Positions 8,297-32,222 of a stretch of 64,000 nt of DNA are shown here, piece after piece; position 1 is the stretch's first letter, and every line of letters starts with the position of its first letter. Origin of the DNA: Acidobacteriota bacterium (lineage in GTDB: Bacteria; Acidobacteriota; Polarisedimenticolia; J045); the NCBI GenBank assembly GCA_030949985.1, contig JAUZRX010000024.1, positions 2,526 through 66,525 of the forward strand. Reading direction: 5' to 3'. The notes below the pieces were generated by a model. That model ran no database searches. It had not been told where the DNA came from and was given only the letters and a program-made list of their open reading frames with translations. Both the position numbers and the translations under genes were made by a program.

Positions 8297-8300
8297 GCCG

Positions 8301-9340: not shown

Positions 9341-9382
9341 CGGCCAGCGCCGTCCGGACCCAAGCGACTAGGAGAACGCAGT

Positions 9383-10300: not shown

Positions 10301-10313
10301 GGAGGGCTGGCAG

Positions 10314-10940
10314 ATGGGACGTTATATCGGTTCAGTTTGCAGGCTCTGTCGGCGGGAAGGCGCGCAGCTTTTCCTGAAAGGTGAGCGCTGCTTCAAGGAC
10401 AAGTGCGCCATCAAGCGCCGCAACTACGCTCCCGGTCAGCATGGCCGGCGTCGGATCAAGCTGCAGGGCTACGGCCTGCAGTTGCGCGAGAAACAGAAGG
10501 TCAAGAGGATCTACGGTGTTCTCGAGAGCCAGTTCCGGATCTACTTCCGTAAGGCTGCCGCCGCCCGAGGCGTGACCGGCGAGAATCTGCTGACGATGCT
10601 CGAGCGTCGCCTGGACAACGTGGTCTACCGGCTGGGTTTTGCGACCTCCCGGGCCCAGGCTCGGCAGTTCGTCAATCACGGGCATTTCGCGGTCAACGGG
10701 CGAAAGGTGGATATCGCCTCGTTCCAGGTGCGCAAGGATGACGTGATCGAACTGCGTGAAAACAGCCGGAAGAACGCTGTGATCCAAGGTAACCTGGACA
10801 CGGCCGAGGGACGTGGAATTCCGCGCTGGCTCTCGCTCGATGCGGCTCAGTTCAAGGGTACCGTGATGGCTCTGCCGACGCGGGAAGACATCGCGATGCC
10901 GATCCAGGAAAACCTGATCGTCGAGCTTTATTCGAAGTGA
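10314..10940 (+). CDS. rpsD: 30S ribosomal protein S4
   Basis: [31 protein letters not shown] Zn-finger N-term plus S4 domain; internal ATG of track ORF 10164. Confidence 0.95.
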
Positions 10941-11016
10941 TGCGGACGCACCGGCGGCCGGGCTGGACGGCGCGCCGGGTCCCTCGGGGTGCCACGCGCG
11001 CCCGGACGGAGGTACG

Positions 11017-11997
11017 ATGATCGAGACGGGTTTCCAAAAGCCGAAGTTCCTCGAGGTCGACCGCGCCAGCCTGACTGGCGAGTATGGCCTTTTTACCGCT
11101 CAGCCCTATGAAAAGGGATTCGGGACGACGATCGGCAACGCCCTGCGTCGGATCCTGCTCTCCTCGATCGAGGGAGCTGCTGTGACGGCGGTGAAGATCG
11201 AGGGGGTACTGCACGAATTCTCCTCGATTCCCGGAGTGATCGAGGATGTGACCGACATCATCCTCAACCTCAAGCGGATTCCGTTCCGGCTGCACATTCC
11301 CCGGGTGGAGACGGTGCGCATCAACGCCAAGGGCCCGAAGACGGTGACTGCCGGGGACATCGAAGCCGGCTCCAATATCGAGATTCTCGATCCGGACGCC
11401 GTCATCGCCACCCTCTCCGACGAGGGTGCTCTCGAAATGGAACTGAGGATCAAGCCGGGCCGGGGATACATTCCCGCCGACCTGAACATGGACGATGATC
11501 TGGCGCTGGGGTATATTCCGATCGACTCGGTCCATTCGCCCGTGCGGAGGGTGAACTATACCGTCGACCCGGCCCGTGTCGGTCGTTCGACAGACTATGA
11601 CAAGTTGATCCTGGAAGTGTGGACCGACGGCTCCATCGCACCGGTCGATGCTGTGGCGGCGGCGGCCAAGCTGCTCAAGGATCATCTTTCAATTTTCATC
11701 AATTTCGAGGACCGGGTCGAGGAAGACGACCAGCAGCAGGACACCGAGGACGAGAAGCTCCGCGAACACCTGGACCGCTCGATCGACGAGCTCGATCTGT
11801 CGGTACGCTCCTACAACTGCCTGAAGAACGCCGGAATCGAAACCGTGCGGGATCTGGTGCAGAAGACGGAGCCGGAGTTGCTCAAGACGAAGAATTTCGG
11901 GCGGAAGTCGCTGAACGAGATCAAGGAGATGATGGCCGACATGGGTCTCTCCCTGGGTATGCGACTCGGCGGCGGTGGCGCCGCAAACCAGGCCTGA
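11017..11997 (+). CDS. rpoA: DNA-directed RNA polymerase subunit alpha
   Basis: 326 aa; [20 protein letters not shown] and [49 protein letters not shown]. Confidence 0.95.
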
Positions 11998-12016
11998 TGG
12001 CAGAGGTTGAGGATCG

Positions 12017-12385
12017 ATGAGACATCGCTGGGGATACAGGAAGCTCGGGAGAAAGTCGGAGCATCGCAGGGCGACCCTGCGTAACCTGGCTACCGCACTC
12101 TTCGTCCACGAGCGCATCACAACCACGCTGGCCAATGCCAAGGAACTGCGTTCCTACGCCGAGCGCCTGATCACCCGCGCGCGTAAGGACAGCGTTCATT
12201 CGCGGCGGATCGTGGCCAGGGAATTGCACAGCCGGACGGTCGTCAAGCATCTGTTTGACGAGATCGCTCCGCGTTTTGCGGATCGACCGGGCGGCTACAC
12301 GCGAATCATGAAGATGATGCCGCGACGTGGCGACAACGCCGAGATGGCGATCATCGAACTGGTCTCGCGCAAGGACGGTGAGTAG
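12017..12385 (+). CDS. rplQ: 50S ribosomal protein L17
   Basis: [45 protein letters not shown] canonical L17; last gene of alpha operon. Confidence 0.95.
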   Translation: [122 protein letters not shown]

Positions 12386-12471
12386 GTCATCTCCATGAGA
12401 GGCGTGATCCCGGCGTCGCCGGGGGGAGTAGAAACCGCCGTGGGCGGAAATCCGAGGCAGAAAAAGGGAGG

Positions 12472-12508
12472 GTCGCCCGCGGGCGGCCCTTTTTCTTGAT
12501 CCCATCAG
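12472..12508 (+). terminator. Rho-independent terminator after rplQ (A-tract, GC stem GGGTCGCCCGC/GCGGGCGGCCC, then TTTTTCTT)
   Basis: Seen in sequence: aaaaagggagGGTCGCCCGCGGGCGGCCCtttttctt, ~90 nt after rplQ stop. Confidence 0.55.
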
Positions 12509-12523
12509 GCTGAGAGGGCGGGG

Positions 12524-15500
12524 ATGTCGCGACGGACAGCAATAAAGAAAGTCCTTGTCATTGGATCCGGACCGATCGTGATCGGCCAGGCCTGTGAGTT
12601 CGACTACAGCGGCACACAGGCATGCAAGGCCTTGCAGGAAGAGGGCATCGAAGTCGTCCTGGTCAATTCGAACCCGGCGACAATCATGACTGATCCCGAA
12701 GTGGCGGAAAGAACATATGTGGAGCCGCTGACGGTCCCTTCCGTAAGGGGCATCATCGCGCGCGAACGACCGGACGCAGTGCTGGCGACCGTCGGAGGAC
12801 AGACCGCACTGAACCTGGCGGTGGACCTCGATGAGGCCGGCGTCTTCGAAGAGTTCGGGGTGCGGATGATCGGGGTCAACCGCAAGGCTGTCGAGGTTTG
12901 CGAAGATCGCGAGAAGTTCCTCGCTGCCGTGGCGGGCGTCGGGCTGGAAATGCCGCGGGGGCGTTTCGCGACAAACCTCGACGAGGCGCGGGAGATCCGT
13001 GACGCGATCGGGTTTCCGCTGGTGATTCGGCCGTCTTTTACGCTGGGTGGTAGCGGCGGGGGCATTGCCTGGAACGACGAGGAGTTGACCGCGATCGCCG
13101 GCCAGGGGATCGACCTGTCGCCGATCGGTCAGGTCCTGATCGAGGAGTCGATCATCGGCTGGAAGGAATATGAACTGGAGGTGATGCGTGACGAGGCGGA
13201 CAACGTCGTCATCATTTGCAGTATCGAAAACTTCGATGCGATGGGTGTGCACACGGGCGACTCGATCACCGTCGCGCCGGCCCAGACGTTGACCGACCGT
13301 GAATATCAGTTGATGCGTGACGCTGCGATTCGAATCATTCGTGCCGTCGGGGTGGAAACCGGGGGCAGTAACATCCAGTTCGCCATCGATCCGGAAAGCG
13401 GCAGAATGCTGGTTATCGAGATGAATCCGCGGGTCTCGAGGTCGTCGGCATTGGCCTCCAAGGCGACCGGATTTCCGATTGCGCGCATCGCCGCCAAACT
13501 TGCCATCGGTTACACCCTCGACGAGATACCCAACGACATCACCAGGGAAACGCCGGCAAGCTTCGAGCCTTCACTGGACTACGTCGTGGTCAAAGTCCCC
13601 CGGTGGGCGTTCGAGAAATTCCCGTCGACCGCCCCCGACCTCGGAACCCAGATGCGCTCGGTAGGCGAAGCGATGGCCATCGGGCGCACCTTTCCGGAGG
13701 CGCTGCAGAAGGCGTTGCGGAGCCTCGAGACCGGCCGCTTCGGGCTCGGCGGAGATGGGACCCAAGTCGTTGAACCGGCGCGCCTGAACGAACGCATGGC
13801 GACTCCGAACTGGCAGCGCTTGTTCTACATCAAGCATGCGTTGCTGGCCGGAGAGAGTGTCGAGCGAATTTCCCGGATCACGCGGGTCGACCCGTGGTTC
13901 CTCAAGCAAATCGAAGAGCTCGTCGGGGTGGAAGGCCGGCTGCGTGCGTTCCGTCTCGACAGCGTTCCCGAGGAATTGCTGCGACGTGCCAAGCGCTTCG
14001 GTTTTTCCGACAGGCAGCTGGCGGTTCTGCTCGACTCCAGGGAAGAAGACGTGCGGCGGCGGCGCTGGGATATCGGTCTGCGACCGGTGTTCAAGCGGGT
14101 GGACACTTGCGCGGCGGAGTTCGAGGCGCATACACCCTATCTCTACTCGACCTACGAAGACGAATGTGAGGCGGAGCCCACGGATCGGAAAAAGGTGATG
14201 GTTCTGGGCTCGGGGCCGAACCGGATCGGGCAGGGGATCGAGTTCGACTACTGCTGCTGTCATGCTTCTTTCGCGCTGCGTGAGGAAGGCGTCGAGTCGA
14301 TCATGGTCAACTGCAACCCGGAAACCGTGTCGACCGATTTCGATACATCGGATCGGCTCTACTTCGAACCGTTGAACCTGGAGGACGTGCTGGAGATCGT
14401 CCATCGGGAGCAGCCCGACGGCGTGATCGTCCAATTCGGCGGTCAGACCCCGCTCAAGTTGGCGCTGCCGCTCAAGGAGGCGGGTGTGCCGATCCTGGGC
14501 ACCTCGCCGGAGAGTATCGACCTGGCCGAGGACCGCGAGCGATTCGGTGCGCTGCTGGGCGAACTGGGGATCAAGGCCCCGGAGTGGGGCACAGCCCGGT
14601 CCCTCGAAGAAGCCCGGGACATCGCTCGTCGTATCGGCTTCCCCCTGCTGGTGCGGCCGTCATACGTTCTCGGCGGGCGCGCGATGTTCATCTGCTGGGA
14701 CGAGGAATCGCTGTCGGTGATGACGCGCAAGGCGGTCGAGGCCTCTCCGGAACATCCGGTACTGCTCGATCGTTTTCTCGAAGACGCATTCGAGATCGAT
14801 GTCGACGCGCTCTGCGACGGCGAGCAGGTGGTCGTCGGGGCGGTGATGCAGCATATCGAGGAGGCGGGAATCCACTCGGGGGACAGCGCCTGCGTGATCC
14901 CGCCCTACCACGAGACGGTGCGGCGGCACGAGGACGAGTTGCGGCGCATCACCCGGGAGCTGGCGTTGGCCTTGAATGTGCGGGGCCTGGTCAATATCCA
15001 GTTCGCGATCCGGGACGATACGGTCTACGTGCTGGAGGTCAATCCGAGGGCTTCCCGGACCGTACCCTTCGTCGCCAAGGCGACGGGGCTTCCGCTGGCC
15101 GCGCTGGCGACGCGGGTCATGCTGGGCCGGAGCCTCGAGGAGCTGGGCGTGCGCGAAAGGCAAGTGGAGGGCGCGGTGTTCATCAAGGAGCCCGTGCTGC
15201 CCTGGGCGCGTTTTCCCGGCGAGGATCCGGTGTTGGGGCCGGAGATGAAGTCCACCGGGGAGGTGATGGGCGTCGGCGTCGATTTCGGCGAGGCCTTTCT
15301 CAAGGCGCAGTGGGGGGCCGGTGAGGATCTGCCCACGGAAGGACGCGCCTTCCTTTCGGTGCACGACCGTGACAAGCCGGGTCTGCTGGCTGTGGCCCAG
15401 GACCTGGTCGAACTGGGTTTCGTATTGCTGGCCACGGCGGGCACCGCCGAGTTTCTCCGGGGCCACGGGCTCGAGGTGGAAACGGTGTTCAAGGTCAACG

Positions 15501-15745: not shown

Positions 15746-16400
15746 GCTCCCCCCCGGCGCTCGGCGGCTGCCGCGGCCTCCCGAGGTGCTGCTTTTCGAT
15801 CTCGACGGGGTGCTGGTGGAGACTTTCGACGCGTGGGTCGCGGTGCTCGACGCCTGCCGCCGGCATCGGGGTCTGGCGCCGTTGGGACCGGAACCGATCC
15901 GGCGCACCTGGGGCCAGGGAATTCTGGCGGACTGCCGTACTTTTTTCCCGGGTACGGACCCCGCGCGGCTGGCGCGGGAATACGACCAGGGCTTCGCCCG
16001 CCACCTGGAGAAGGTGAAACCAATGGCCGGTGTGGGGGCGTTGCTGACCCTGTTGCGGCGGCGAGGGATCCCCACGGCGGTGGTGACCAACTCGCCGGCG
16101 GCCATGACCCGACGCCTGCTGGCCGGCGTGCAGGCGGACGGGCGGCCGCTGGGAGAGTTCTTCGATGTCGTGGCCTGTGGAGACGAGGTGCAACGGGGAA
16201 AACCGGCACCGGAATTGCTCGAACTCGCCCTCGAACGGCTGGGGCACGGCGTCCCGGGTTCGGTGATGGTGGGGGATACGGACAACGATCGGTTGGCGGC
16301 GCAGGCGGCCGGTATCCCTTTCGTCGGATTTTGCATCTCTGGAGACGAGTGCGTGGAGTGCCTCGACCAGTTGGCGCCCCGGCTCGGTTTGAGCGAATAA
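15726..16400 (+). CDS. HAD-superfamily hydrolase (phosphoglycolate phosphatase-like)
   Basis: Motif [11 protein letters not shown], motif III K (RGKPAPE), motif [16 protein letters not shown]; overlaps carB 3' end by 20 nt. Confidence 0.7.
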
Positions 16401-16457
16401 TCTTCCTCGGTGCCGGTGGACCCTCCGCCCGGGAGGGCGCCGGTGGGAGCTGGAACC

Positions 16458-16670
16458 ATGCCGATCTACGAGTTTCAATGCAAGGAGTGCGGCGAGAGTC
16501 TCGAGGCGTTGCGGCGCATGGGTCAGGGAGCCGAAGGGCTGCAATGCCCTCGCTGCGGGAGCCATGAGCTGGTGCAGAAGCTCTCCTCCTTCGCCACCTC
16601 CGGCGGTGCCGCCCCGTCGTGCAGCACCTCGCCCACTTGCGGCGCCGGGGGCGGCGGCGGTGGTGGGTGA
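16458..16670 (+). CDS. FmdB-family zinc-ribbon protein with poly-Gly C-terminal tail
   Basis: MPIYEFQCKECGESLEALRRMGQGAEGLQCPRCGSHELVQ (CxxC-x17-CxxC) then ...CGAGGGGGGG; internal ATG of track ORF 16410. Confidence 0.6.
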   Translation: MPIYEFQCKECGESLEALRRMGQGAEGLQCPRCGSHELVQKLSSFATSGGAAPSCSTSPTCGAGGGGGGG

Positions 16671-16684
16671 GCCTTCTGACCTCG

Positions 16685-16701
16685 CGGGCTCGGTGAGCCC
16701 G
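16685..16701. terminator. Perfect 7-bp GC hairpin (CGGGCTC-GGT-GAGCCCG) between convergent genes
   Basis: Seen in sequence 14 nt after FmdB stop and 30 nt after the stop of the minus-strand regulator; no U-tract. Confidence 0.3.
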
Positions 16702-16732
16702 TAGATGGACAGGCTTCTCCGCCACGCGCTCT

Positions 16733-17824
16733 TCAAGCGGGCGGCCGGCAGAGGCTGAGCACGCCGTGCAGGGGGAGGGTGGTATCCCAGCGGGGATCCG
16801 CCGTACAGCGCCGCAAGACCAGCCTGCCGCGTCGTCGGAGGGCGCCGGCCTCGCTGCGATTTCCCTGGCGCAGGTAGAGTTCCGGCTGGTCGAGCAGGGC
16901 TGCGCCCCGGAGGGCCGGCAGAGCCAGTTCCCGGCTCAGGGCGATGGCCCGGCGCGACCACTTCAGCCCCTCACCGCATCGTCCGGCAAGTGCCGCGCAG
17001 CGGGCGGCCGTGCGCAGGGACTCGATGCGGACCGGAGTTTTCGGCGAGCCCATCTGCAGCGCGCGTCGGCCGAGGGTCCATGCCGCGCGGCGACGTCCCT
17101 GGCGACGATAGACCTCGGCACGCACCGTCGTGGCCAGGGCCGCCACATCGTCGTCAGTCGGCGCATCGTCCGCGGTGCCGATCGCTTCGGCCAGCTCGAG
17201 GGCCTGCTTTGAGTGCGCCGTCGCGAGATGGCTGATCGCGCCCACCAGGCGGGTGAGAGGATCCGGCCTGAGGCCTGCGACCAGCAGGCCCGCCACCGCG
17301 GCCTGTCCGCCCCCGATCTGGGCGGTGGCCAGGGCCAGCACGTCGCCCCGGGATGGGGCGGAGGGCAGGGCCAGGCGGAGTACGTGGCAGGCCGCGTTCC
17401 AGCGGCCGAGGGCGGCTTCGGCCCGGCCCCAGCTGCGCAGACTGGGGCGGTCGAGGGCGGGCTGGCTCCTGGCGTGCAGCGCTCGCAGCACCCGTGTGGC
17501 CCCGAGCAGATCGCCGGCCGCCAGTGCCTGACGCCACCGGACCCGTCCCCCCGCGCCCTCCAGAAGATCTTCATCGAGCAGGGCCGCCAGGCGTGCGGTG
17601 GTTTCTCCGACGCCCTCGCCCAGGGCGCGCAGCAGGCTGAGATAGCGGGAAAGAGTGATGTCGGCCTGGCCCGTTTCCACCCGGGAGAGATGGGAACGGG
17701 TGACACGGACGCCTTCGCCGCGGGTGGCCCGTTCCACGTCGTCGAGCGAGAGTCGGCCTTCAAGGCGGATGTGGCGCAGGGCGCGGCCGAGAGTTGAACG
17801 CAGGGTCTGCTGGCGGGGATGCAT
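16733..17824 (-). CDS. XRE-family HTH transcriptional regulator with ~280-aa helical (TPR-like) C-terminal domain
   Basis: N-terminus MHPRQQTLRSTLGRALRHIRLEGRLSLDDVERATRGEGVRVTRSHLSRVETGQADITLSRYLSLLRALG fits HTH_3; GGAGGA RBS before ATG at 17824 (track ORF extends to 17929); rest Ala/Leu/Arg-rich helical. Confidence 0.65.
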   Translation of the reverse strand: MHPRQQTLRSTLGRALRHIRLEGRLSLDDVERATRGEGVRVTRSHLSRVETGQADITLSRYLSLLRALGEGVGETTARLAALLDEDLLEGAGGRVRWRQALAAGDLLGATRVLRALHARSQPALDRPSLRSWGRAEAALGRWNAACHVLRLALPSAPSRGDVLALATAQIGGGQAAVAGLLVAGLRPDPLTRLVGAISHLATAHSKQALELAEAIGTADDAPTDDDVAALATTVRAEVYRRQGRRRAAWTLGRRALQMGSPKTPVRIESLRTAARCAALAGRCGEGLKWSRRAIALSRELALPALRGAALLDQPELYLRQGNRSEAGALRRRGRLVLRRCTADPRWDTTLPLHGVLSLCRPPA

Positions 17825-18019
17825 CGCGAGTCCTCCTTGAATATGTTTTTTCGGTAGCCCCAGAGTGCCCCCGACGGGGTAGGAAAGAAAAGGGCCCGGG
17901 GCGGAAAAAGGCGACGTGGGAGGCGACAACCGCGAAACCTCGCGCTGGAGCGTGTGTTTTTTGTTGCATCGCTGCGTCCCCGTTTTGGGAATTGCCCCCG
18001 AGAGCGGGGCGTCGGGGAC

Positions 18020-20992
18020 TCAGGCGGTGACGACGGCGATCCGGGCCCGCACCGCGGTCAGCTCTTCGAGCAGCGAGAAGACGCTTGCGGGGCGCTGATT
18101 GGGATCTTTCGAGAGCAGGCGTGTGACCAGTTCTTCCACCGGTTGCGGGATGCCTTCCCGGAATCGGGAAATCGGTGGCGGCGGCTCTTCGATTTGCAGC
18201 CGCAACACCTCCGCCACGTTGTCCGATGCGAAGGGTTCCCGGCCCGTGAGCAAAAAATAGGTCAGTACGCCGATGGCGTAGAGATCGGCGCGCTGGTCCG
18301 CGGCTTCGCCGCGGATCTGTTCCGGGGCCATGTAGGCCGGCGAGCCCATCACCAGTCCTTCGCGGGTCAGGTGCACGTCGCCCTGGCGGGCGATGCCGAA
18401 GTCCACCAGCCGGGGCCGCCCCTCCTGGTCGAGCAGGACGTTTTCAGGCTTGACGTCCCGGTGAACGATGCCCAAGCGGTGGGCGGCGGCCAGGCCCGAG
18501 GCCACGCCGGAGATGAACTCGAGCACCTGGCCGAGGGGAATGGGATGACGGTTGCCGGCCCACTGGCGCAGGTCCACTCCGTCGATGTACTCCATGACGA
18601 TGAAGCGCAGCTCGCGCCAGCGTTCGAAGGTGTGGACCCGCACGATGTTGGGATGGTTGATCTGGCGCGTGAGTCGGATTTCCTGGATGAAACGCTTTTC
18701 CACCGTCTCGCCGATGGGACCGGAGAGTACCTTCAGCGCAACGGGTTCCTCGAGCACCAGGTCCCGTGCGGCGAAGACCGTACCCATGCCGCCGCGCCCG
18801 ATTTCCCGGAGGATCTCGTAGCGGTTGGCCAGCAAGGCGCCGGGCAGCAGGTGGGTACCGTGCAACTCTTCGAGAAGCTGCTGGGCCGAGCCGAGCCGAT
18901 GGGAACGATCGGGAACCAGGCAGCCTCGCACCACGCGCTGGAGCAGGTCCGGGATCGGGTGGCCCGCCCGCTCCGGCAGCCGCGGGGCTTCGGCGCCGCG
19001 GGGCGGGGGAGGGAGCGTACCGGTGAGCATCTCCCAGGCCAGCACGCCCAGCAGATAGATATCCGAAGACGGGTCGCAGCGCTCACCGCGCAGGGACTCC
19101 GGGGAGCGGTAAGCGGCAGGGAGGGTCGGATCGTCCGAGTGACGCAGGCCGATGCCGAAGTCGATCAGTCGGGCCTCGAACGATGTGCTGATGATGATAT
19201 TTTCCGGTCGCAGGTTGCGGGCCAGCAGGCCCAGTCCGTGGGCGTAGTCCAGGGCCTCGGCCAGGCGTGTGATGACCTGGATCGATCGCGGAACGTCGAG
19301 GGGGCCTTCGCTGGACAGGATCTCCCGCAGGGACTTGCCGGCGACATGTTCCTCGACGACGAAGATTCCCGCCCCGTCCCGGCCCGCATCGTGAATCGCG
19401 GCGATCGCCGGGTGGTGCAGCCGCGCGATGCGGCGGATATCCGCAAGGATTCTCTCGGCTGCCGACTCGGTGGGAATCAGGGGGGGCGCGAAGCGGCGCA
19501 GGACGACCCGCCGCTCCATGGTGCTGTCGATGGCCAGGAAGGCCTGACCGGGAACGTAGCCCTCCAGCGGCCCCTCGATGGTGTAGCGGTCGGGGGAACT
19601 CGAGGCCGGCCCTGGCTGCTGGTCGATACGTCGTTCGATCTGGGCCAGTCGCTGGGAGGCATCCCGGTAGTTCAACTCGAGGGCCACCACGCGGCCGAGA
19701 GCCGTGGCTGCGTCCCGCAGCTTGCCGGTGCGCTCGAGTACGTTGGCCAGGCGGTACCAGCCCTCCGGATCCGGCTCCCGCTCCGGGTCCGCCAACCCCC
19801 GGCGATAGTGGTCCGCCGCCACCGAGTCCATGCCCAGCCGCTCGAAGAGTCGGCCCAGCCGCATGGCGGCAGCGGTGGCGTCCTCGCTGTCGGCCGCGAT
19901 TCCCTGGAGCACGCGCACCGCCGCGTCCACGTCACCGCAGCGCTCGTAGAGTTCGGAAGCGGTCAGCCGTTCTCCCGCTTCCTCGTAGGCCCTCGCCGCC
20001 TCCGCCAGCTGGCCGCAGGCCTCCAGGCAGCGTGCCGCGTCACGGACCGAACCCGCGTCGCGGAAATGGCGCGCGGCGTCGGCGTAGTCCCCGGCCCGCT
20101 CCATGGCCGCCGCCGCGGCGACGATGTCTCCGGCCGCTTCGTGGGCCCAGGCGGCCTCCGCCGAGCACCCCAGTTGTTCGAGGCAGCCCGCCGCCTGGCT
20201 GGGGTGTCCCGATTCCAGGTAGAGAGCCGCCGCCTCGGCCCAGCGCGAAGCGGCGCGGAAGGCCTCCGCCGCCAGTTCGGGGTCGATTTCACCGGGGTTG
20301 AGCTTCTCGGCGATCTCGGCGGCGCGTTCGTTTTCGCCCGCGGCGAGAAAGGCGCGGATGGCTCGCTCCGGTCGGTGGGCCCGGGCCCAGGCGGCGGCGG
20401 CGTCCCGTGAGCGGCCCGAGCGTTCGAGCCAGCGGGCCCCGCGGTCGGGAATGCCGCTGGCGAGAAACTGTTGCCCGAGCCGGGCCGCCAGGCCCAGCAC
20501 CTCTTTCTGGTCCACGCGGACGTTGCCCGAGCGCAACAGGCTCTCGAGGCAGCGCTCGGCCTTGTCCGGGCAGCGGGCCTCGATGAACAGCCGAGCGGCC
20601 CGAAGAAAATCGCCGGTGTGTTCGTAGAGCGTAGCCGCCGGCTCGGGATGTCCGAGTTGCTCGTGAATCTCGGCGGCCCGCCGGGCCTGGTTGGCCTGGA
20701 CGAAGAGGCGGGCGGCCCGCTCCCGGTCGCCGCAGCGGAGGGCCATCTCGGCGGCCTCGAGAGTCATGCCGCCCATCTCGTACTCCCGGGTCGCGGTGGC
20801 GTGTTCGCCGAGTTCCGAGGCGACCTGGCCGGCGAGGCGATGGTGGCGGCCTTTTTGGTACATTTTCAGCGCCTGGCTGAGTTCACCACCCAGCCGGTAG
20901 AGATCGCCCGCGGTGGAATAGTCTCCCCTCAGGGCGGCCCACCTGGCTTTTCTTGCCCATCCTCGCGCCATCATATGCTCGGGGAAGAACAT
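18020..20992 (-). CDS. Multidomain Ser/Thr protein kinase: N-terminal helical repeat array, pseudokinase domain, then active Hanks-type kinase domain
   Basis: C-terminal domain carries all catalytic motifs (GRGGMG, VALKVL, HRDVKPEN, DFG, APE). The preceding kinase-like domain has DFG but K->R (VVLRRF) and HRD->ARN. The N-terminal ~500 aa are ~19-20-aa repeats (GD..AA..Y/FE..G). Preferred start MFFPEH (GGAGATCC RBS) avoids overlap with the divergent gene; the track ORF extends to 21154. Confidence 0.8.
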   Translation of the reverse strand: MFFPEHMMARGWARKARWAALRGDYSTAGDLYRLGGELSQALKMYQKGRHHRLAGQVASELGEHATATREYEMGGMTLEAAEMALRCGDRERAARLFVQANQARRAAEIHEQLGHPEPAATLYEHTGDFLRAARLFIEARCPDKAERCLESLLRSGNVRVDQKEVLGLAARLGQQFLASGIPDRGARWLERSGRSRDAAAAWARAHRPERAIRAFLAAGENERAAEIAEKLNPGEIDPELAAEAFRAASRWAEAAALYLESGHPSQAAGCLEQLGCSAEAAWAHEAAGDIVAAAAAMERAGDYADAARHFRDAGSVRDAARCLEACGQLAEAARAYEEAGERLTASELYERCGDVDAAVRVLQGIAADSEDATAAAMRLGRLFERLGMDSVAADHYRRGLADPEREPDPEGWYRLANVLERTGKLRDAATALGRVVALELNYRDASQRLAQIERRIDQQPGPASSSPDRYTIEGPLEGYVPGQAFLAIDSTMERRVVLRRFAPPLIPTESAAERILADIRRIARLHHPAIAAIHDAGRDGAGIFVVEEHVAGKSLREILSSEGPLDVPRSIQVITRLAEALDYAHGLGLLARNLRPENIIISTSFEARLIDFGIGLRHSDDPTLPAAYRSPESLRGERCDPSSDIYLLGVLAWEMLTGTLPPPPRGAEAPRLPERAGHPIPDLLQRVVRGCLVPDRSHRLGSAQQLLEELHGTHLLPGALLANRYEILREIGRGGMGTVFAARDLVLEEPVALKVLSGPIGETVEKRFIQEIRLTRQINHPNIVRVHTFERWRELRFIVMEYIDGVDLRQWAGNRHPIPLGQVLEFISGVASGLAAAHRLGIVHRDVKPENVLLDQEGRPRLVDFGIARQGDVHLTREGLVMGSPAYMAPEQIRGEAADQRADLYAIGVLTYFLLTGREPFASDNVAEVLRLQIEEPPPPISRFREGIPQPVEELVTRLLSKDPNQRPASVFSLLEELTAVRARIAVVTA

Positions 20993-21086
20993 AGGATCTC
21001 CCCCCGCCGGGGGGCCACTACCGACTTCGGTCAGAAGTGCTGGTCTCGTGCTAGCTTGGGCGCCAGACTGGCAGAAGGAAGCCCAG

Positions 21087-22931
21087 ATGACCGCTAGACC
21101 CCTGATCGACATGTTGCGCCGGCTGACCCCACCCGCGATCGAGGAGATCCTCATGCGGGAGCGGGTGGTTCGGCGTGCCCAGGCTTACGCGGCCGAAAAT
21201 CGCGTGGACGAGGTCTGGCTCGAGCGGGGCGCCCTGCGGGCTCACGTGTCGGGATCGTCGGAAACGCCCTACCACGCCGTGATTCGCCTGCGGGAGGGGC
21301 ATCTGGATGCCGAATGTTCCTGCCCCTACGAGCGCGGGCTGTGCTGGCATGTGGGGGCCATCCTGCTGACTCTCTCGAGCCACGGAGAACTGATCGACGC
21401 CCTCGAGGAAAACCTGGCCCCCGTCCTCCAGGAGGAGGAAGGCAGCGGGCCTGCCACCGCCGAGGATGACCAGGCGGGCGCTCCGGCCCCGCAAGGCGGG
21501 GTCCGCGCTGCGGGACCCACCGCCGCCCAGCAGGCCGCCTTGCGCCAGGCCCGCCGGGAGGAAGTGCAGGAACATCTGCTGGGCTGGCCTCGCCAGCGCC
21601 TGGTGGACCTGCTGACCGAGTTGGCCCTGGACGACGCCGGAGTGGAGGCCCGGATCCAGCGTTTCCAGGAGGAGCCCACCGACATCGACCTGCGGCTTTT
21701 TCGGCAGGCTGGAAAGACGGCTCTCCGCCCGGGGGTCGTGTTGGATCGCTACGAGGTGGCCCGTATCGCCGCGGACTTGCACGAGGTGGCCGCTTCGGTG
21801 CGGCGCCTGGTCCATTCCGGGCACCCGGAGCAAGCCCTGGATCTGCTGCTGGAACTGGCCTCCATGGCCTGGGCTCGGGCGGCCGAAGTGGACGACCGGG
21901 ACGGGGCCCTCGAAGGATTCGTGCGGGAAGTCCTGCGCACCTGGATCCAGGGCTGGGAAGAGATCGACGGGCGGGACCGCCAGCGCCTGGCTCGCGAGGT
22001 TTTCGGCTGGCTGATGGAGGACGCCGGGGCCCTGACCCGAGGCCTGATCTTCGAGGGCCGTGGGACCCTCGGACCGACCGGTCTCGAGACGCTGTCGAAC
22101 CTGCTCGCGCCGTTGCTCGAGCAGCGGCAGCAGCAGCGTCCGGCCATCCTGGGCGGAGAGGATGGCTGGACCCACGCGGATCCCCTGGCGGAGCGGATTC
22201 GGGCGGCCTTGCGGGAAACCGCCGAGGCCCGTGGCGACCTGGATGAATTTCTGCGGCACTGCGACCCGTCGGGAGGGCACGGCGTCGAGGTGCTGGCGGC
22301 TGCCCGCCGCCTGGAGAGAGAGGGCCGGCTCGACGAGGCCCTGGACTGGGTCGAAAAAGGTCGTCGCCGGGCCCGCGGCACGGCCCGGGCCAGCCTCGAG
22401 GACCTGCGGATTTCCCTGCTCCACCGCCTCGGTCGCAGGCGCCAGGCCATCGAGGCCGCCTGGGAGATCTTCGTCGCTCAGCCCGGGGCCCACACCTTCG
22501 CTCGACTCCAGGAAACGGCCGGCGAGCACGAACGCGGGCAATGGCGGACCCGGGCGATCGACCATGCGGAGGCCAGTTCGGATGCCACGGCTTTCGTGGA
22601 GATTTGCCTGGCGGCCCGGGAGGTCGAGCGGTTGGCGCATCGCCTCGATGCCAGCCCGGGCTTCATCCTGGCCGCCGCGCCGACAGTCCTGGAGCGGACC
22701 GCGCTGATGCTCGAAGATCGCAGCGCCTGGGCGTCTATGAAGATCTACCAGCACCTGGCGACCCGCCTGCTCGCCGAGGGCGACGCACGGCACTACGGCA
22801 AGGTCCGGGAGCATCTGGAAGGCCTTCGCCGGGCCTGCGGGAAAGACGAGAACGGTCCTGCCTGGGAGGCACACCTCGAGCAGCTGGCCAGGAACTTCGC
22901 CGTGGTACGGGCCTGGTTCCCGTCGCCATAG
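21087..22931 (+). CDS. SWIM zinc-finger family protein (N-terminal SWIM CxCx7CxH, long helical C-terminal region)
   Basis: HLDAECSCPYERGLCWHVGAILL matches the SWIM CxCxnCxH signature; AGGAAG RBS before ATG 21087 (track ORF from 21048); divergent from the kinase gene. Confidence 0.7.
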   Translation: MTARPLIDMLRRLTPPAIEEILMRERVVRRAQAYAAENRVDEVWLERGALRAHVSGSSETPYHAVIRLREGHLDAECSCPYERGLCWHVGAILLTLSSHGELIDALEENLAPVLQEEEGSGPATAEDDQAGAPAPQGGVRAAGPTAAQQAALRQARREEVQEHLLGWPRQRLVDLLTELALDDAGVEARIQRFQEEPTDIDLRLFRQAGKTALRPGVVLDRYEVARIAADLHEVAASVRRLVHSGHPEQALDLLLELASMAWARAAEVDDRDGALEGFVREVLRTWIQGWEEIDGRDRQRLAREVFGWLMEDAGALTRGLIFEGRGTLGPTGLETLSNLLAPLLEQRQQQRPAILGGEDGWTHADPLAERIRAALRETAEARGDLDEFLRHCDPSGGHGVEVLAAARRLEREGRLDEALDWVEKGRRRARGTARASLEDLRISLLHRLGRRRQAIEAAWEIFVAQPGAHTFARLQETAGEHERGQWRTRAIDHAEASSDATAFVEICLAAREVERLAHRLDASPGFILAAAPTVLERTALMLEDRSAWASMKIYQHLATRLLAEGDARHYGKVREHLEGLRRACGKDENGPAWEAHLEQLARNFAVVRAWFPSP

Positions 22932-22965
22932 CCTGCCGGCCCGGAAGTCGAGGGGAACGACGTTT

Positions 22966-23454
22966 TCAGACTCCCGGGAGAGCTTCGAGCAGGACCACCA
23001 CCCGCGTCCCGTCGCCGTTTCCGCCGGCCTCCACCGAAGCCCAGGCGAGGGTCCCACGGATCTGGCCGATGGCCTGCTCCTCGCTGGGGTGTCTGCTGAG
23101 ATCCTCGAACTCCGGCCGGCCCACGATCGTTCGCAGGGCCTCGAGAGCGGCCGCGACGCTCTCTTCCGCCGGAAGTTGCCCGGCATCCAGCCGATACCAC
23201 GCCACCGACAGCGGGCTTGCGCCGAAGCGACCCTGGTCGAGCAATCTCCAGGATTTCGGCCAGGGCACTTCGGGCGGGGCCTCGGGCGGGGTGGCGAGAG
23301 CTCCGGCGCGTGGCCCGCCTTCCGGGAAGAGGGCTGCGCCCGTCGGGGCGTCCTCCGCTCCGGCCCGCCGGTCAGCGTTGTCGGCAGGGCCGCAACCTGC
23401 GGCCAGGAGCGTCGTCAGCAGAAGCGATGCGAGCCGGGCGCTGCGGAATCCCAT
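22966..23454 (-). CDS. Small lipoprotein (162 aa), unknown function
   Basis: MGFRSARLASLLLTTLLAAGCGPADN: signal peptide plus lipobox LAAGC. Confidence 0.55.
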   Translation of the reverse strand: MGFRSARLASLLLTTLLAAGCGPADNADRRAGAEDAPTGAALFPEGGPRAGALATPPEAPPEVPWPKSWRLLDQGRFGASPLSVAWYRLDAGQLPAEESVAAALEALRTIVGRPEFEDLSRHPSEEQAIGQIRGTLAWASVEAGGNGDGTRVVVLLEALPGV

Positions 23455-23576
23455 GGCCCGAGCATGGCACGAAGCCCCCCGGCTCCGCCATCGCCGGGGC
23501 GGTGTTTCCCGCGCGGCAGGGACCTATATTCGCCGGGAAGGTGTGCGGGACCGCTGAACGGCGGCGCGAGGAGACC

Positions 23577-25022
23577 GTGCGGACGACCAGAGGAGTCGAG
23601 ACCACCCCCGTCATCGAAGCGGGTACCGAGTTCGCCGGAGGATGGCGGGTCGAGCGGGTATTGACGGAGGTTGCCGGCCTCGAAGCCTACTACGCCGTCG
23701 ATGGCGCCTACGGGCGGGCGATTTGCTTCCTGCTGCCGCCCGACGCTCCAGACCCCGAACTCGACGAGGAGGCCGCCGCAGCCTGGGGCACGACGCGCTG
23801 CATTCTGAGAGATCCGGTCCTCGGACGTATCGTCCTCGATGAAGTGCCCGAGGGACCTCTCTTCGCCGACCGGCTCGCGGAGGGCTGGACTCCCGGCGCG
23901 GCCTTCCTCGATCCGATCAGCACCGTCCTTCGCCGGGAGCACCGCCGGGGGCGCTGGCACGGTCAACTGGCGCCCGATCGTGTGGTTCTGGGAGCGGACC
24001 ACGTAGCCATCGCCGGGTGGGGACTGTGTGACGGGGACGCTTCCGATCTCAGGGCGCGGGACCTGGCAGGTCTGGCCGCCCTCTCCGGTCACGCCGATCG
24101 CTCCAGGGGCGGCGTCGGAGACGCCGGGCCCGGGGGCTCCGACAGGTCGGTGTCGCCGTCGTCCGCGGCCCTCTCCGCGCTCTGTGCCGCGATGGCTTCC
24201 GATCATCTCCCGACCCTGCGGGCGGCCCTCGATCGCTGGCGCGAAGATGGGGGAGACGAGCAAGTTCCCGAGTATCGAAGGGCGCTCGACGCCCTCGAGC
24301 GCATCGAACGCAAGGTCGACGAACACCTGGAAGCCGCTCGCCTGCAGGTCGAGCGCGGCGATCCCCTCGGGGCCGTGGCGGCCTGCCGGGAGGTCGTTCG
24401 CCTGGGCGCCGAGGACCGGGCCTTGCCCCTGATGAAGCAGGCCCGGCGCCAGGCCCGGGACATGCTCGGCGGCCGCCGGCCTTTCGTGCGCCGCGCCTGG
24501 ATTGTCGCGGCGGGAGCGGTGGGGCTGCTTCTCTGCGGCCTGCTGGGCTGGTGGTTGATGGGTCGGGGCGGGGACAGTGGCGAGATCGCGCGGCAGGCGG
24601 CACTGATGGCGCGGACGCACGGGGAGCGGGCCGTGATCGCCTGGTTGCTCGATCTCAGGGTGACGGGGGAGAGTTCCGCCGAGACCGAGGCCCTGCTCAC
24701 CGGGCACCTCCAGGCGCTGGCGGCCCAGGAACGGCAGAAGATGCTGGAGCTCCGGCGGGAAATCGTTTCCCAGGGGGCGAGGCCCCGCCAGGCCGATCGC
24801 CTGGCCGAGGAATCGCTCGCCCGGCTGGACGCCCTGGCCGCCGCCGATCCGCTCAGCGCTGGTTTCGGAACGCGCCTGACCCGGGTCCTGATCGACGTGG
24901 ACAAGGCGGCGGCCCGTTACCGGGCGGGAGCACGGATCGACAACGCCAGCGCCCTGCGGGCCGTCGAGCAACTGCTTCGCGAAGATCCTCTCTTCGGTGC
25001 GGCTGGAGGAGAAAAACGATGA
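23577..25022 (+). CDS. Membrane-anchored kinase-like pseudokinase with periplasmic helical domain
   Basis: N-terminal ~230 aa resemble a protein kinase fold with every catalytic motif degenerate (AICFLL for VAIK, HGQLAPDRVVL for HRDLKPENILL, VAIAGWGLC for DFG). Single TM AWIVAAGAVGLLLCGLLGWWLMG, then ~150-aa helical ectodomain. GTG 23577 after GAGGAG; alternative GTG 23541. Track ORF 23217 overlaps the opposite lipoprotein gene. Confidence 0.5.
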   Translation: MRTTRGVETTPVIEAGTEFAGGWRVERVLTEVAGLEAYYAVDGAYGRAICFLLPPDAPDPELDEEAAAAWGTTRCILRDPVLGRIVLDEVPEGPLFADRLAEGWTPGAAFLDPISTVLRREHRRGRWHGQLAPDRVVLGADHVAIAGWGLCDGDASDLRARDLAGLAALSGHADRSRGGVGDAGPGGSDRSVSPSSAALSALCAAMASDHLPTLRAALDRWREDGGDEQVPEYRRALDALERIERKVDEHLEAARLQVERGDPLGAVAACREVVRLGAEDRALPLMKQARRQARDMLGGRRPFVRRAWIVAAGAVGLLLCGLLGWWLMGRGGDSGEIARQAALMARTHGERAVIAWLLDLRVTGESSAETEALLTGHLQALAAQERQKMLELRREIVSQGARPRQADRLAEESLARLDALAAADPLSAGFGTRLTRVLIDVDKAAARYRAGARIDNASALRAVEQLLREDPLFGAAGGEKR

Positions 25023-26773
25023 GCGGCCTCGGTGCCATGCCCGGCAGGTTCCGGTGTCCCGCCGTCTGGGTTCTCTTCGTACTCCTGGGAGTGTCGGGGC
25101 CGAGCCAGGCGCTCCGCCTGGGGAACCGCGCTGCTGCGGACAGGAGCGCGGCGCGGCCCCTGCGGGAGGTCGATCTGGTGCGCGTACTCGCCGGCGAGGT
25201 CGAGGCGGGCGCCGCCGCGAGAGCGGCTCTCGAGCGCCTGCCCGCCCGCTGTCGACCGAGTCGGGCCCTGGCGAAGGAGGCCTGCGACGACGATCTCCGC
25301 TGCGCCTGGCTCTACGCCCGGGGCGAGGTGGTCCGTGCCTGGAGCGCTGAGGTGGCGCGGGGGCGGAAAGATGCGGCGGCCTGGCTGCACCGTGCGGCGG
25401 ACCGCCTGGCCGCCGGCGGGGCCTGCGGGCGCGGGGCGGCGCGCCGGGGAGCGTGGGAAGCCGATCGCCGCCAGGCGGCCGTGGATGATGGACGGGTTCA
25501 GCTGGCTCGGTTGCTGGAAGTGCGCCGACGGACCCACGCCGCCCTGCTGGCGGGAAGCGTCGCGCGCAGGGTGGAAGCGCTGGTGGCGGCGGCTCGTACG
25601 CAGGGTCTCGGGGCCGTCGATCCTCAGGCCCTCGCCGCCTTGCGCGGCGAGATCTTCACTGCCGCCCAGCGTGGCACGTGGTTGCTGGCCCACCCGGGGC
25701 TGGATCGGTTCCGCAAGATCCTGCAGGGGCTGTGGCAGCCCGCGGGGGGCATGCCCCAGGGCTGCGGAGACGAACTTTTCCGGCCCGATCTGCTGGACGA
25801 CCAGTGGCGCGGCTACCTGGTGCGTGAGGTCGTCCCCAGGGCCCTGTCCTGCCTGTCCGACGGTCTGCCCCGGGCCCTGGCCGGCAAGGGGCTGGCGCCC
25901 GCGGATCCCGTCGCGGGGAAGGATGTGGCCCGGGCTCTCGAGGCTCTCGCCCGGCGGGATTCCGGCGGACGCCATTTCTCGAGGGATCCTGCTCTCGGAG
26001 CCCGAATGGAGGCACTGGAAAGGGCGTTTCGCGCCGGGCGGCAGGTGGCCTCGAGGCCCGTCGCCGCGACTTCCTCTCCCGAGGCGGCCAGGCGGCCGGT
26101 GCCGGCACCTCCCCCCCGTCGGTCGCCCCGATCCTCGGGAGGCCGGGCTCCGCGGAAAGTCGCGCCCGCTCCCGCGAAGGTCGCCTCCCGCAGCGATCCC
26201 CTGCTGGTGAGGCGGGCGGAGAAGGTCCAGCGATTCCTGGAGACTCGGGAAGAACTGGTCGCCGCCGCCCGGGCGGCGAGGGACTCCCGTGCCCGCCGGC
26301 GTCTCGTCCAGCGGCTGGTGGTCGCCCTGCACCGCGGGGTGTGCGCCCCCCTCGAGAAGCTGGATCCCGTCGAACTCGCCGCCGCTCGGCGGGTCTTGCT
26401 CGACCTGGGATACCAGGCCGACGAGGCCGCCTGCAGCGCCAGGGAGGGGGAGGCCTACCTCGACCAGTTGCTGGAAGCGGCGGAAAATCTCCAGCGGCTA
26501 CGGACGGTGGCGCTGATGCGCCGGGCGGCACGGGAGATCGCCGATCGCAGCCCCAGCCTGGCGCTGGTCACCCTCGATCATGTGCCCAAGCGCTTCCAGG
26601 GGAGTTCGTGGACCCTCCTGCGGGCCTGGGCGGCCCGGGAGGAGGGTGATCACGTGACGGCCGACCGGCTGCTCTCGCGCATGGACGAGGAAACCCTCGA
26701 TCGTCTGCGCGCCAGCGGACAGGAAGAACTGGCGCGGGTGGTGGCCCACGCCTGGGTCGCGCGCTCGCCCTGA
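25019..26773 (+). CDS. Secreted/periplasmic Cys-containing helical protein (584 aa), unknown function
   Basis: ATG overlaps upstream stop (ATGA); GGAGGAG RBS; signal peptide MSGLGAMPGRFRCPAVWVLFVLLGVSGPSQA; no recognisable domain. Confidence 0.55.
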   Translation: MSGLGAMPGRFRCPAVWVLFVLLGVSGPSQALRLGNRAAADRSAARPLREVDLVRVLAGEVEAGAAARAALERLPARCRPSRALAKEACDDDLRCAWLYARGEVVRAWSAEVARGRKDAAAWLHRAADRLAAGGACGRGAARRGAWEADRRQAAVDDGRVQLARLLEVRRRTHAALLAGSVARRVEALVAAARTQGLGAVDPQALAALRGEIFTAAQRGTWLLAHPGLDRFRKILQGLWQPAGGMPQGCGDELFRPDLLDDQWRGYLVREVVPRALSCLSDGLPRALAGKGLAPADPVAGKDVARALEALARRDSGGRHFSRDPALGARMEALERAFRAGRQVASRPVAATSSPEAARRPVPAPPPRRSPRSSGGRAPRKVAPAPAKVASRSDPLLVRRAEKVQRFLETREELVAAARAARDSRARRRLVQRLVVALHRGVCAPLEKLDPVELAAARRVLLDLGYQADEAACSAREGEAYLDQLLEAAENLQRLRTVALMRRAAREIADRSPSLALVTLDHVPKRFQGSSWTLLRAWAAREEGDHVTADRLLSRMDEETLDRLRASGQEELARVVAHAWVARSP

Positions 26774-26803
26774 AGCCGACACGGCTCGAGGGCCGGCCGC
26801 CGG

Positions 26804-27358
26804 TCAGGTCGTTTCTTTCTTCACGGGAGCAAGAGTGACGGAAAGATCCCGTCCCATCATCTGGCGGGAACGGTCCTCGGGAATGCCGTGCTCCTGGACC
26901 GCTTCCACCACGCGGTCGAGCACCATCTCTCCCATTTCGGGGCGGCGCATTTCACGCTTGCGGTACATCACGGTGACGCGCACCTTGTGCCCCTGGTCGA
27001 GAAACTTGATCACTTTCCGTGTCTTGGTTTCGAAGTCGTGTTCATCGATGGCAGGCCGGTACTTGATCTGCTTGACCTCGACCTGGTGCTGCTTTTTCTT
27101 GGCGGCCTGAGCCTTCTTCTGCTGCTCGTAGTTGTACCGCCCGTAGTCCATGATGCGGCAGACGATGGGTCGGGCATCGGCGGCGACTTCGACGAGATCC
27201 AGGCCCTTGGACTGGGCGATGGAGAGGGCTTCTTCGACCGGGACGACGCCCACCTGCTGGCCCTCTTCATCGATCAGCCGGACGGGGCTGATGCGGATCA
27301 TGCGATTGATACGGACCTTGGGTGGGCCCTGACGTTCTACGATTCCTGGTCTTCTCAT
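26804..27358 (-). CDS. infC: Translation initiation factor IF-3
   Basis: VRINRMIRISPVRLIDEEGQQVGVV...PIVCRIMDYGRYNYEQQKKAQAAKKKQ...TVMYRKREMRRPEMG aligns to IF3 N and C domains; exact start (AUG vs non-canonical) uncertain. Confidence 0.9.
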   Translation of the reverse strand: MRRPGIVERQGPPKVRINRMIRISPVRLIDEEGQQVGVVPVEEALSIAQSKGLDLVEVAADARPIVCRIMDYGRYNYEQQKKAQAAKKKQHQVEVKQIKYRPAIDEHDFETKTRKVIKFLDQGHKVRVTVMYRKREMRRPEMGEMVLDRVVEAVQEHGIPEDRSRQMMGRDLSVTLAPVKKETT

Positions 27359-27536
27359 CCGGTGGCTTGCGTCCTCCTTGGCGCCCTGGGCGGGCGCTGG
27401 TTCAATTTTTGCGCCGGGCCTTCGCCATGTCCGGCCAGACGCCCCATCGTATCATCATCTCCGGCCTGCGCCGGTACTTTGCGGAGAATCTCGGTCCTCG
27501 GCGGCCCGGGAGCAAGGGGGCTCGGGTAGGAGAAAA

Positions 27537-28634: not shown

Positions 28635-28656
28635 CCCCTCCGCGGTCGGCGTGTCG

Positions 28657-32208: not shown

Positions 32209-32222
32209 CCCCCGGTCCCATT

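Follow-up and report, generated by a model that had tools for sequence, protein, structure and literature searches.

A conserved acidobacterial protein family with an N-terminal helical solenoid, a pseudokinase and a C-terminal Hanks-type kinase in one chain

Introduction

A gene on contig JAUZRX010000024.1 of an Acidobacteriota bacterium raises the question of how an inactive kinase fold may be used inside a bacterial signaling kinase. The gene is located in a stretch of 64,000 nucleotides, the whole of which is called the window in the following. It encodes a protein of 990 amino acids, in which an alpha-solenoid (REP), a kinase fold without catalytic residues (PSK) and an active-type C-terminal kinase (KIN) follow one another. 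New here are the acidobacterial family with its undescribed architecture, the ancient fused pseudokinase and the distinctive scaffold of 13-residue repeats; the catalytic domain is of a kind already known, a plain PknB-like Hanks kinase.

Tandems of a pseudokinase and a kinase (psK-K) are central regulatory devices in eukaryotes, with JAK, GCN2 and the plant tandem kinase proteins (TKPs) as examples. In bacteria, pseudokinases are only starting to be cataloged, and tandem fusions lie outside the published classification of bacterial serine/threonine kinases (STKs) in its available portions. There, an atlas from 2025 that covers 42 families of bacterial STKs places tetratricopeptide repeats (TPRs) only C-terminal to the kinase, describes a single STK domain and mentions no tandem kinase; elements N-terminal to the kinase, either a transmembrane stretch or an FHA domain, are given for only one family (10.1101/2025.01.12.632604). 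In the STKs of Planctomycetota, arrays of TPR or WD40 repeats are also located at the C-terminal, mostly periplasmic, ends (PMC11032199). The initial annotation of the locus, which was made from the sequence alone, had called the domain order inverted with respect to the usual bacterial STK, and both surveys support this within the portions named. The available portions of a review on bacterial pseudokinases mention no tandem or fused arrangement (PMC12599244). No description of a bacterial tandem kinase or pseudokinase-kinase fusion was found in the literature searched, and within this literature the scaffold-pseudokinase-kinase architecture is undescribed for bacteria.

Results

Domain Organization of the Protein

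The Pfam search of the 990-residue protein returned two Pkinase stretches, together with weak TPR, SNAP and IFT-type matches in the N-terminal half. Hidden Markov models (HMMs) built from the domains of the family assigned residues 8–459 to REP, 467–716 to PSK and 720–984 to KIN. The full-length AlphaFold2 (AF2) model has a mean predicted local distance difference test score (pLDDT) of 89.8. A pseudokinase-kinase tandem behind an N-terminal helical repeat array had been proposed in the initial annotation; it is borne out by the Pfam matches on both halves and by the domain HMMs, which give the protein an anatomy of three modules. No transmembrane segment was found in the 990 residues, the highest 19-residue hydropathy being 1.35; from this it follows that the protein is soluble and located in the cytoplasm.

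The Middle Domain

The profile of the middle domain was aligned with that of the C-terminal kinase by hhalign with a probability of 100% at 31% identity. R499 is paired with the VAIK lysine (K754), D518 with the glutamate of helix alphaC (E771) and A591-R592-N593 with H844-R845-D846. Furthermore, RPEN is aligned with KPEN, DFG with DFG and SPE with APE. The window protein has lost the glycine loop in this domain and its activation loop is six residues shorter, and it keeps DFG (611–613), SPE and the catalytic-loop asparagine N598. This confirms the first reading of the motifs, in which HRD was seen replaced by ARN and the VAIK lysine by arginine with DFG retained, and it places the lost catalytic aspartate at N593. 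The AF2 model of PSK shows a bilobal kinase fold with a pLDDT mostly of 84–96.

The loss extends to all 70 proteins with the same order of domains (REP-psK-K), which were retrieved from public collections of genomes and metagenomes. The HRD aspartate is present in none of them, its position being taken by asparagine (17), tryptophan (17), threonine (13), alanine (5), serine (4) and others including methionine and valine. The beta3 lysine was found in 6 of the 70, the catalytic-loop asparagine in 14 and the DFG aspartate in 32. With the HRD aspartate missing in 70 of 70 proteins, catalysis was lost long ago and throughout the family, and the domain was kept nevertheless. A kinase fold that lacks at least one of the VAIK lysine, the HRD aspartate and the DFG aspartate is defined as a pseudokinase, which applies here through R499 and N593, and the middle domain is predicted from these exchanges to be catalytically dead.

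The domain is under selection and not decaying, as can be seen from its conserved identity, its confident AF2 fold and the APE glutamate, which is kept in 67 of the 70 proteins. In the close clade, the identity to the window copy amounts to 53–89% for PSK, 53–94% for the scaffold and 72–98% for the kinase. Many non-catalytic positions of PSK are invariant, e.g., H527, I530, G552, L581, H585, P596, G613, P631 and E632.

In a neighbor-joining tree of the kinase domains, the pseudokinases are found on long branches. Ranked by BLAST, the closest active relatives of the window PSK are the kinase domains of proteins with the scaffold and a single kinase (REP-K), which occupy 13 of the top 25 places, ahead of the C-terminal kinase of the protein itself; the difference in score is small (126 vs. 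111–113 bits). This hints that PSK may descend from the original kinase adjacent to the scaffold.

The C-Terminal Kinase

The C-terminal domain comprises the motifs GRGGMG, VALK, HRDVKPEN, DFG and APE, as already noticed in the initial annotation, which had called it a fully canonical Hanks kinase. The corresponding residues are G732 and G734, K754, E771, H844-R-D846, N851, D864-F-G and E891. With a Pfam Pkinase match of E=2.6e-76 and all features of an active Hanks-type kinase (PF00069) in place, KIN is predicted to be active. The best PDB matches are StkP, PknB and PknA (E about 1e-47), and the target TM-score of the modeled KIN against PknB in Foldseek is 0.85–0.91. Searched as a whole against the PDB, the full model matched single kinase domains only. 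Across the 70 REP-psK-K proteins, the glycines of the G-loop, the lysine, the glutamate, HRD, the asparagine, DFG and APE are all conserved in 70 of 70. The activation-loop threonine T876, which is likely the phospho-acceptor, is kept in 69 of them.

The protein does not belong to the PASTA kinases of the PknB/Stk1 type, as it reaches a score of 417 against a cut-off of 450 in the model PknB_PASTA_kin (NCBIfam NF033483), over the kinase part only, and no PASTA match was found with Pfam.

The N-Terminal Solenoid

The residues of the region 10–366 show autocorrelation peaks at lags of 13 (z=8.4), 26 (7.3), 39 (7.8) and 52 (5.1), while lag 19 reaches just z=3.2 and lag 34 is negative (z=−2.9). 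The array, first described as about twenty repeats of 19–20 residues, consists instead of 23 units of 13 residues in one register. The units form three blocks (residues 23–152, 180–231 and 249–365), which are interrupted by irregular inserts at residues 153–179 and 232–248. Their consensus is G-[DE]-x3-A-A-x-[LA]-[YFL]-E-x-[AL], and family-wide, position 1 is glycine in 84% and position 6 is alanine in 97%. Near-invariant alanines are located at residues 41, 54, 67, 80, 93, 106, 119 and 132, with a spacing of exactly 13. In the AF2 model, each unit forms a 10-residue helix followed by a 3-residue turn (pLDDT 92–98). The blocks reach a pLDDT of 92–96 within the full-length model, and REP modeled alone has a pLDDT of 94.2 and a predicted template modeling score (pTM) of 0.77. 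A tandem repeat of 39 bp, as it could underlie the 13-mers at the DNA level, was looked for and not found, and the array is therefore old.

The solenoid ends with five longer, TPR-type helices (residues 372–458). Above threshold, the REP fragment is matched in Pfam by TPR_14 (41.7 bits, cut-off 23.5), TPR_7 (37.6) and TPR_2 (35), and the REP profile matches the TPRs of CTPR and OGT over positions 335–452. TPRs in the strict sense are confined to residues 366–459; residues 23–365, with a period of 13/26 and 10-residue helices, are TPR-like only, and it is in this part that the SNAP and IFT140/172-type profile matches are found. The hairpin of a TPR takes 34 residues, whereas REP takes 13 per helix and 26 per hairpin, and the REP unit is set apart from the TPR, SNAP and IFT-type solenoids (Pfam TPR_14, SNAP, TPR_IF140-IFT172, Clathrin) by its invariant alanine at position 6 and its glycine at position 1. 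As E-values between repeat proteins are inflated, homology of REP to the IFT solenoids is not claimed, and no solved structure matching the whole REP solenoid was found. On sequence and model, REP can be described as a TPR-like solenoid whose unit is unusually short and regular.

The Junction Between Pseudokinase and Kinase

The solenoid and the pseudokinase are joined by a linker of only seven residues. Between PSK and KIN there is essentially no flexible linker at all, and the junction LHGTHLLPGALLANRYEI is near-invariant in the family, with L710, G712, T713, L716, P717 and G718 invariant or nearly so.

An N-lobe back-to-back dimer activates PknB of Mycobacterium tuberculosis, and its interface is allosteric. 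The equivalents of the PknB triad R10/L33/D76 were traced in both domains. In KIN, the arginine is found in 70 of 70 proteins, the leucine in 63 of 70 and aspartate or glutamate in 36 of 70. In PSK, the arginine is present in all 41 aligned proteins, methionine or leucine in 43 of 48 and aspartate or glutamate in 57 of 65. Mutants of the PknB interface residue L33 are among the PDB entries matched. The retention of these residues in PSK is suggestive of a dimer-type role.

Distribution of the Family

A first word-indexed search yielded about 27 full-length homologs with 60–94% identity, in addition to P0028 (40%) and P0029/P0031 (about 30%), and all named homologs were metagenome-assembled genomes (MAGs) of Acidobacteriota. 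Two further REP-psK-K members with source names are from Acidobacteriota as well, as is thereby every member with a named taxon. Among the GTDB species representatives, only six loci with a psK-K pair were found, one of them in a Candidatus Polarisedimenticolia MAG and another, L010, on a complete MAG chromosome.

An exhaustive HMMER search was performed with a full-length profile against 1.84 billion cluster representatives, and 268 fetched proteins were classified locally by their domains. Besides the 70 REP-psK-K proteins, these include 65 REP-K, 11 K-REP-K and 4 REP-K-psK proteins as well as numerous further chains, in which 2 to 10 kinase-like domains are found. The K-REP-K proteins (P0162, P0173, P0174, P0180 and seven more) carry two fully active-type kinases around the solenoid, with hydrophobic segments in the stretch that leads from the first kinase to REP. 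In the REP-K-psK proteins (P0030, P0156, P0158 and P0165), the inactive copy comes last. In all four layouts, the solenoid adjoins a kinase fold directly at the N-terminal side of the latter; there is no membrane segment in between, and the scaffold is therefore a cytoplasmic module. A search with REP only showed that 17 of the best 20 matches carry Pkinase, and P0279 (534 aa; REP match E 2.7e-45) has a cyclic nucleotide (cNMP)-binding domain in place of the kinase, but is encoded on a short contig of 2.2 kb and may be incomplete. Judging from these sequences, the solenoid is apparently a cytoplasmic module dedicated to kinases.

Many REP-K relatives show, as judged by eye, a hydrophobic and probably membrane-spanning segment at the extreme N-terminus. 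The complete chromosome of Acidobacteriota bin529 (CP070706.1; locus L010, positions 5863–7584) carries a psK-K pair which is 67% identical to that of the window; in the 6 kb upstream, no reading frame encodes a REP scaffold. Additionally, several metagenomic chains, among them P0125, P0134 and P0153 (about 2,500 aa), P0128, P0143 and P0159, contain 3 to 10 kinase-like domains each. Many of these domains are pseudokinases, e.g., nine in a row followed by one active kinase, and some chains continue with AAA/STAND-like regions.

The arrangement was initially considered rare in bacteria. This holds in so far as none of 102 ordinary kinase open reading frames (ORFs) from 74 other genomic loci has two kinase domains, but dozens of clusters share the exact architecture and many multi-kinase chains exist. 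The layout is unusual, but not vanishingly rare in metagenomes.

Gene Start and Genomic Neighborhood

The full-length homologs of the protein have 40–94% identity. The candidate start codon is the ATG at 20992, which is preceded by a Shine-Dalgarno-like run (GGGGGAG). The N-termini of the homologs correspond to M7/M8 (20974/20971), which leaves the start uncertain by 18–21 nt. A longer ORF reaching 21154 was dropped, as the homologs start at the equivalents of residues 1–8 of the 990-residue form. An antisense ORF of 818 codons (17954–20410, forward strand) was rejected as well: it overlaps the kinase gene, whose homologs cover the whole length, and its G+C content at third codon positions is 0.75 vs. 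0.83. This frame and other long overlapping ORFs in this stretch of 68–70% G+C are most likely high-GC artifacts and not genes. The G+C content is 0.68–0.73 across the kinase cluster (window 16000–32000) and 0.61–0.64 at 1–14000, where the ribosomal-protein operon is located, and at 32000–36000.

The window represents core chromosome, with a ribosomal-protein operon, carB, a HAD hydrolase gene, infC, clpB, lpxD, pnp and infB. The features of the kinase gene and its direct neighbors are listed in Table 1. Downstream of the kinase lies a gene for a helix-turn-helix (HTH) protein with a TPR-like C-terminal region, which is found at this place also in the loci L001, L002/L003, L009 and L010. Its product is a possible partner or substrate of the kinase, and the two genes are possibly co-transcribed. 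This domain architecture presumably recalls the RNPP-type HTH-TPR regulators. The position of the divergent DUF6880 gene is kept in L001, L002/L003 and L009 with 49–51% identity. A gene of 162 codons also belongs to the neighborhood. The gene order around the kinase is the same in L001, L002/L003 and L009 and partly in L010, in which the HTH-TPR and HAD neighbors are kept and DUF6880 is missing. P0030 and REP-K relatives such as P0049 are found in unrelated gene contexts. The conserved neighborhood is a weak sign of functional linkage.

The middle of the membrane protein p601 contains a hydrophobic segment (AWIVAAGAVGLLLCGLLGWWLM), and the N-terminal region looks, by eye, like the catalytic core of a kinase in a very degenerate form (EHRRGRWHGQLAPDRVVLG...VAIAGWGL). 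The idea that p601 is a third kinase-like protein was rejected, since the hhalign probability is 0.1% and the PDB profile matches (E 0.3–1.2), three of four of which are protein kinases (CaMKII, StkP), are not significant.

Table 1. Features of the kinase gene and of its neighbors in the window.
Feature	Position	Strand	Evidence or remark
REP-pseudokinase-kinase coding sequence	18020..20992	-	990 aa + stop; ORF list, start-codon context, full-length homologs
13-residue helical repeat array, aa 23-365	19898..20926	-	Autocorrelation, unit table, AF2 model
Three canonical 34-residue TPRs and capping helix, aa 366-459, end of solenoid	19616..19897	-	Pfam, profile matches
Pseudokinase domain, aa 467-716	18845..19594	-	hhalign vs. 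C-terminal kinase, family columns, AF2 fold
PSK/KIN junction LHGTHLLPGA, aa 710-719	18836..18865	-	Family alignment columns
Active-type Hanks Ser/Thr kinase, aa 720-984	18041..18835	-	Pfam Pkinase, PDB matches, Foldseek
HTH_31 (XRE-type) DNA-binding domain and TPR-like C-terminal region, 3' of kinase	16733..17929	-	Pfam HTH_31 E=4e-6
SWIM zinc-finger and DUF6880 protein, divergent, 55 bp from kinase start	21048..22931	+	Pfam DUF6880 E=1.3e-23, SWIM E=2.9e-4
p601, 601-aa membrane protein without Pfam match	23595-25022; listed ORF starts 23217	+	Conserved in cluster as 470-490 aa
One or two open frames, 392 or 740 aa, no Pfam match	25032-26773	+	Position matches 569-aa unannotated protein of L001, L002

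Discussion

Proposed Function and Alternative Explanations

The protein is best explained as a soluble cytoplasmic Ser/Thr signaling kinase, in which the solenoid is the input scaffold and the pseudokinase the allosteric or dimerization partner of the kinase. A probability of roughly 0.55 is assigned to this explanation. The organisms of the family are uncultured, and the mechanism is inferred. The solenoid would bind a cytoplasmic protein or peptide as the input module, which is supported by the TPR/SNAP/IFT-like class being known for protein binding. The pseudokinase would phosphorylate nothing by itself and would act as allosteric or dimerization partner of the kinase, the coupling of the two most likely using the N-lobe back-to-back surface as in PknB-type activation. 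Occupancy of the scaffold would then lead to autophosphorylation of T876 and to phosphorylation of substrates. This logic would be akin to that of JAK, with its receptor-binding module, JH2 and JH1, and would have arisen independently within the bacterial Hanks kinases. The occurrence of both orders, psK-K and K-psK, behind the same scaffold fits a duplication after which catalysis was lost in one copy, so that either copy may turn into the regulator.

Several observations weigh against this explanation. Residues of the R10/L33/D76 type also occur widely in ordinary bacterial STKs and are not diagnostic. With a pTM of only 0.45, the full-length AF2 model does not establish a contact between PSK and KIN. 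The pair on the complete bin529 chromosome shows that pseudokinase and kinase can exist without the scaffold. Furthermore, the HTH and DUF6880 genes keep their place next to the kinase only in the clade with 60–70% identity. The synteny is absent around P0028, which is 40% identical, and was not detected in L011–L013 of the 36–37% clade, whose short contigs provide little flanking sequence.

The main role of the pseudokinase could also be that of a platform for docking or scaffolding, which presents or sequesters substrates or adaptors without any allosteric control and is extended by the solenoid. Scaffolding is a documented role of pseudokinases in the available portions of two publications (PMC12599244, PMC8141879), and the conservation of PSK despite the loss of all its catalytic residues as well as its position next to a protein-binding solenoid, at a distance of seven residues, would be in line with it. 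A pure platform leaves unexplained why the junction to KIN is near-invariant and free of a linker and why PSK retains N-lobe residues of the dimer type; it seems rather unlikely, though it is to be kept in mind. Conservation also argues against the idea that PSK is a relic without function, left by an internal duplication and simply not lost so far. The catalytic residues are indeed gone and the position of the HRD aspartate varies freely, but PSK is kept in all 70 proteins of the family. Identity to the window protein ranges from about 94% to about 30% among the members from the first search, the more distant members of the exhaustive search being comparably divergent by domain bit scores, and the length, the fold and many of the non-catalytic positions of PSK are conserved. 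A relic is hence hardly credible.

A quite improbable alternative is a middle domain which is still alive, i.e., binds nucleotides or has a non-canonical activity like WNK, CASK or SelO, and makes the protein a dual enzyme. The window protein keeps D611 of DFG, N598 and an arginine at the beta3 position, and in the available portions of the atlas its authors speculate that pseudokinases with a lysine-to-arginine exchange may bind ligands in a non-canonical way (10.1101/2025.01.12.632604). Family-wide, however, the DFG aspartate and the catalytic-loop asparagine are kept only in the minority given above (32 and 14 of 70), the HRD position is varied and the glycine loop is gone, and this variation speaks against a conserved alternative active site in PSK.

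Plant immune proteins of the WTK1/Yr15 type also combine an inactive and a second kinase fold in a single chain (PMC6170490), and the PADLOC models PD-T4-6 and mad6 match the window protein. A bacterial counterpart of these proteins or an anti-phage defense kinase, in which the pseudokinase would be a decoy sensing the invader, is nevertheless very unlikely. The PADLOC and NCBIfam defense matches cover the generic kinase only, with scores of 253.7 against 460 for MAD6 and 118 against 990 for PglW, and the protein cannot be assigned to the defense kinases PD-T4-6 (PADLOC), mad6 (MADS) or PglW (BREX). The gene lies amid ribosomal genes, carB, infC, clpB, lpxD, pnp and infB and without defense neighbors. 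Its neighborhood is syntenic where the orthologs are just 62–67% identical, unlike the variable defense islands, and its domains are ordered psK-K behind a scaffold and not K-psK.

A psK-K pair that is conserved, soluble and rigidly joined would offer a simple bacterial system for studying the control of a live kinase by a dead one, and it would show that the tandem solution evolved more than once. Apart from this, REP as a cytoplasmic N-terminal solenoid with a short and regular 13-residue unit is of interest for the structure and design of repeat proteins.

Comparison With Known Systems

The Hanks kinases of the PknB/StkP type are like KIN in sequence and fold, in the catalytic motifs, in the activation-loop threonine and in having counterparts of R10 and L33 of the PknB N-lobe. 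Unlike them, the window protein has neither a transmembrane helix nor PASTA or another C-terminal sensor; its kinase stands at the C-terminus and is preceded by a pseudokinase and a solenoid of 460 residues.

The bacterial pseudokinase families CP1, DYD, ActPs1-3, DLHK and GLW as well as YukC/EssB and MviN share with PSK a Hanks fold without the VAIK lysine and the HRD aspartate, and ActPs2 shows the same lysine-to-arginine exchange. In the available portions of their descriptions, they stand alone or are fused to transmembrane or other domains, and a position immediately ahead of an active kinase and behind a repeat array at the N-terminus is not given for them.

The plant TKPs (WTK1/Yr15, RPG1, Sr62, WTK4) likewise have two tandem kinase folds, one of which is a pseudokinase (PMC6170490, PMC8761531). 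They are mostly of the order K-psK or K-K, are derived from receptor-like kinases (RLKs) or receptor-like cytoplasmic kinases (RLCKs), frequently contain integrated decoy domains and have a role in immunity, whereas in the window protein psK-K follows an alpha-solenoid in a core-genome context and both domains are PknB-like and bacterial. Of the resemblance to plant tandem kinases which had been pointed out originally, the two kinase folds per chain remain; the RLK/RLCK lineage is missing and an immune role is unsupported by the context.

JAK (FERM-SH2-JH2-JH1) and GCN2 (pseudokinase-kinase) resemble the window protein in combining, within a single soluble polypeptide, a partner-binding module, an impaired kinase fold and an active kinase. 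Unlike JAK, it has no FERM or SH2 domain, as neither is matched in Pfam, and it is a PknB-like Ser/Thr and not a tyrosine kinase. Homology of the window protein to JAK and GCN2 is limited to the general kinase fold, which points to an independent bacterial origin. The likeness to JAK is thus an analogy and not membership: the order of the modules agrees, while FERM, SH2 and the tyrosine kinase are lacking.

A bolder and doubtful extension of the analogy is that Acidobacteriota independently evolved a JAK-like unit. In such a unit, the solenoid would dock on a membrane receptor, with p601 as one candidate, the kinase would be under allosteric gating by the pseudokinase and would signal to the adjacent HTH-TPR regulator; the solenoid would be a distinct, kinase-dedicated class of repeats that is profile-related to the eukaryotic IFT/coat-type solenoids. 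By analogy of layout, the order of a pseudokinase followed by a kinase behind a large scaffold appears in any case closer to JAK or GCN2 than to the plant tandem kinases.

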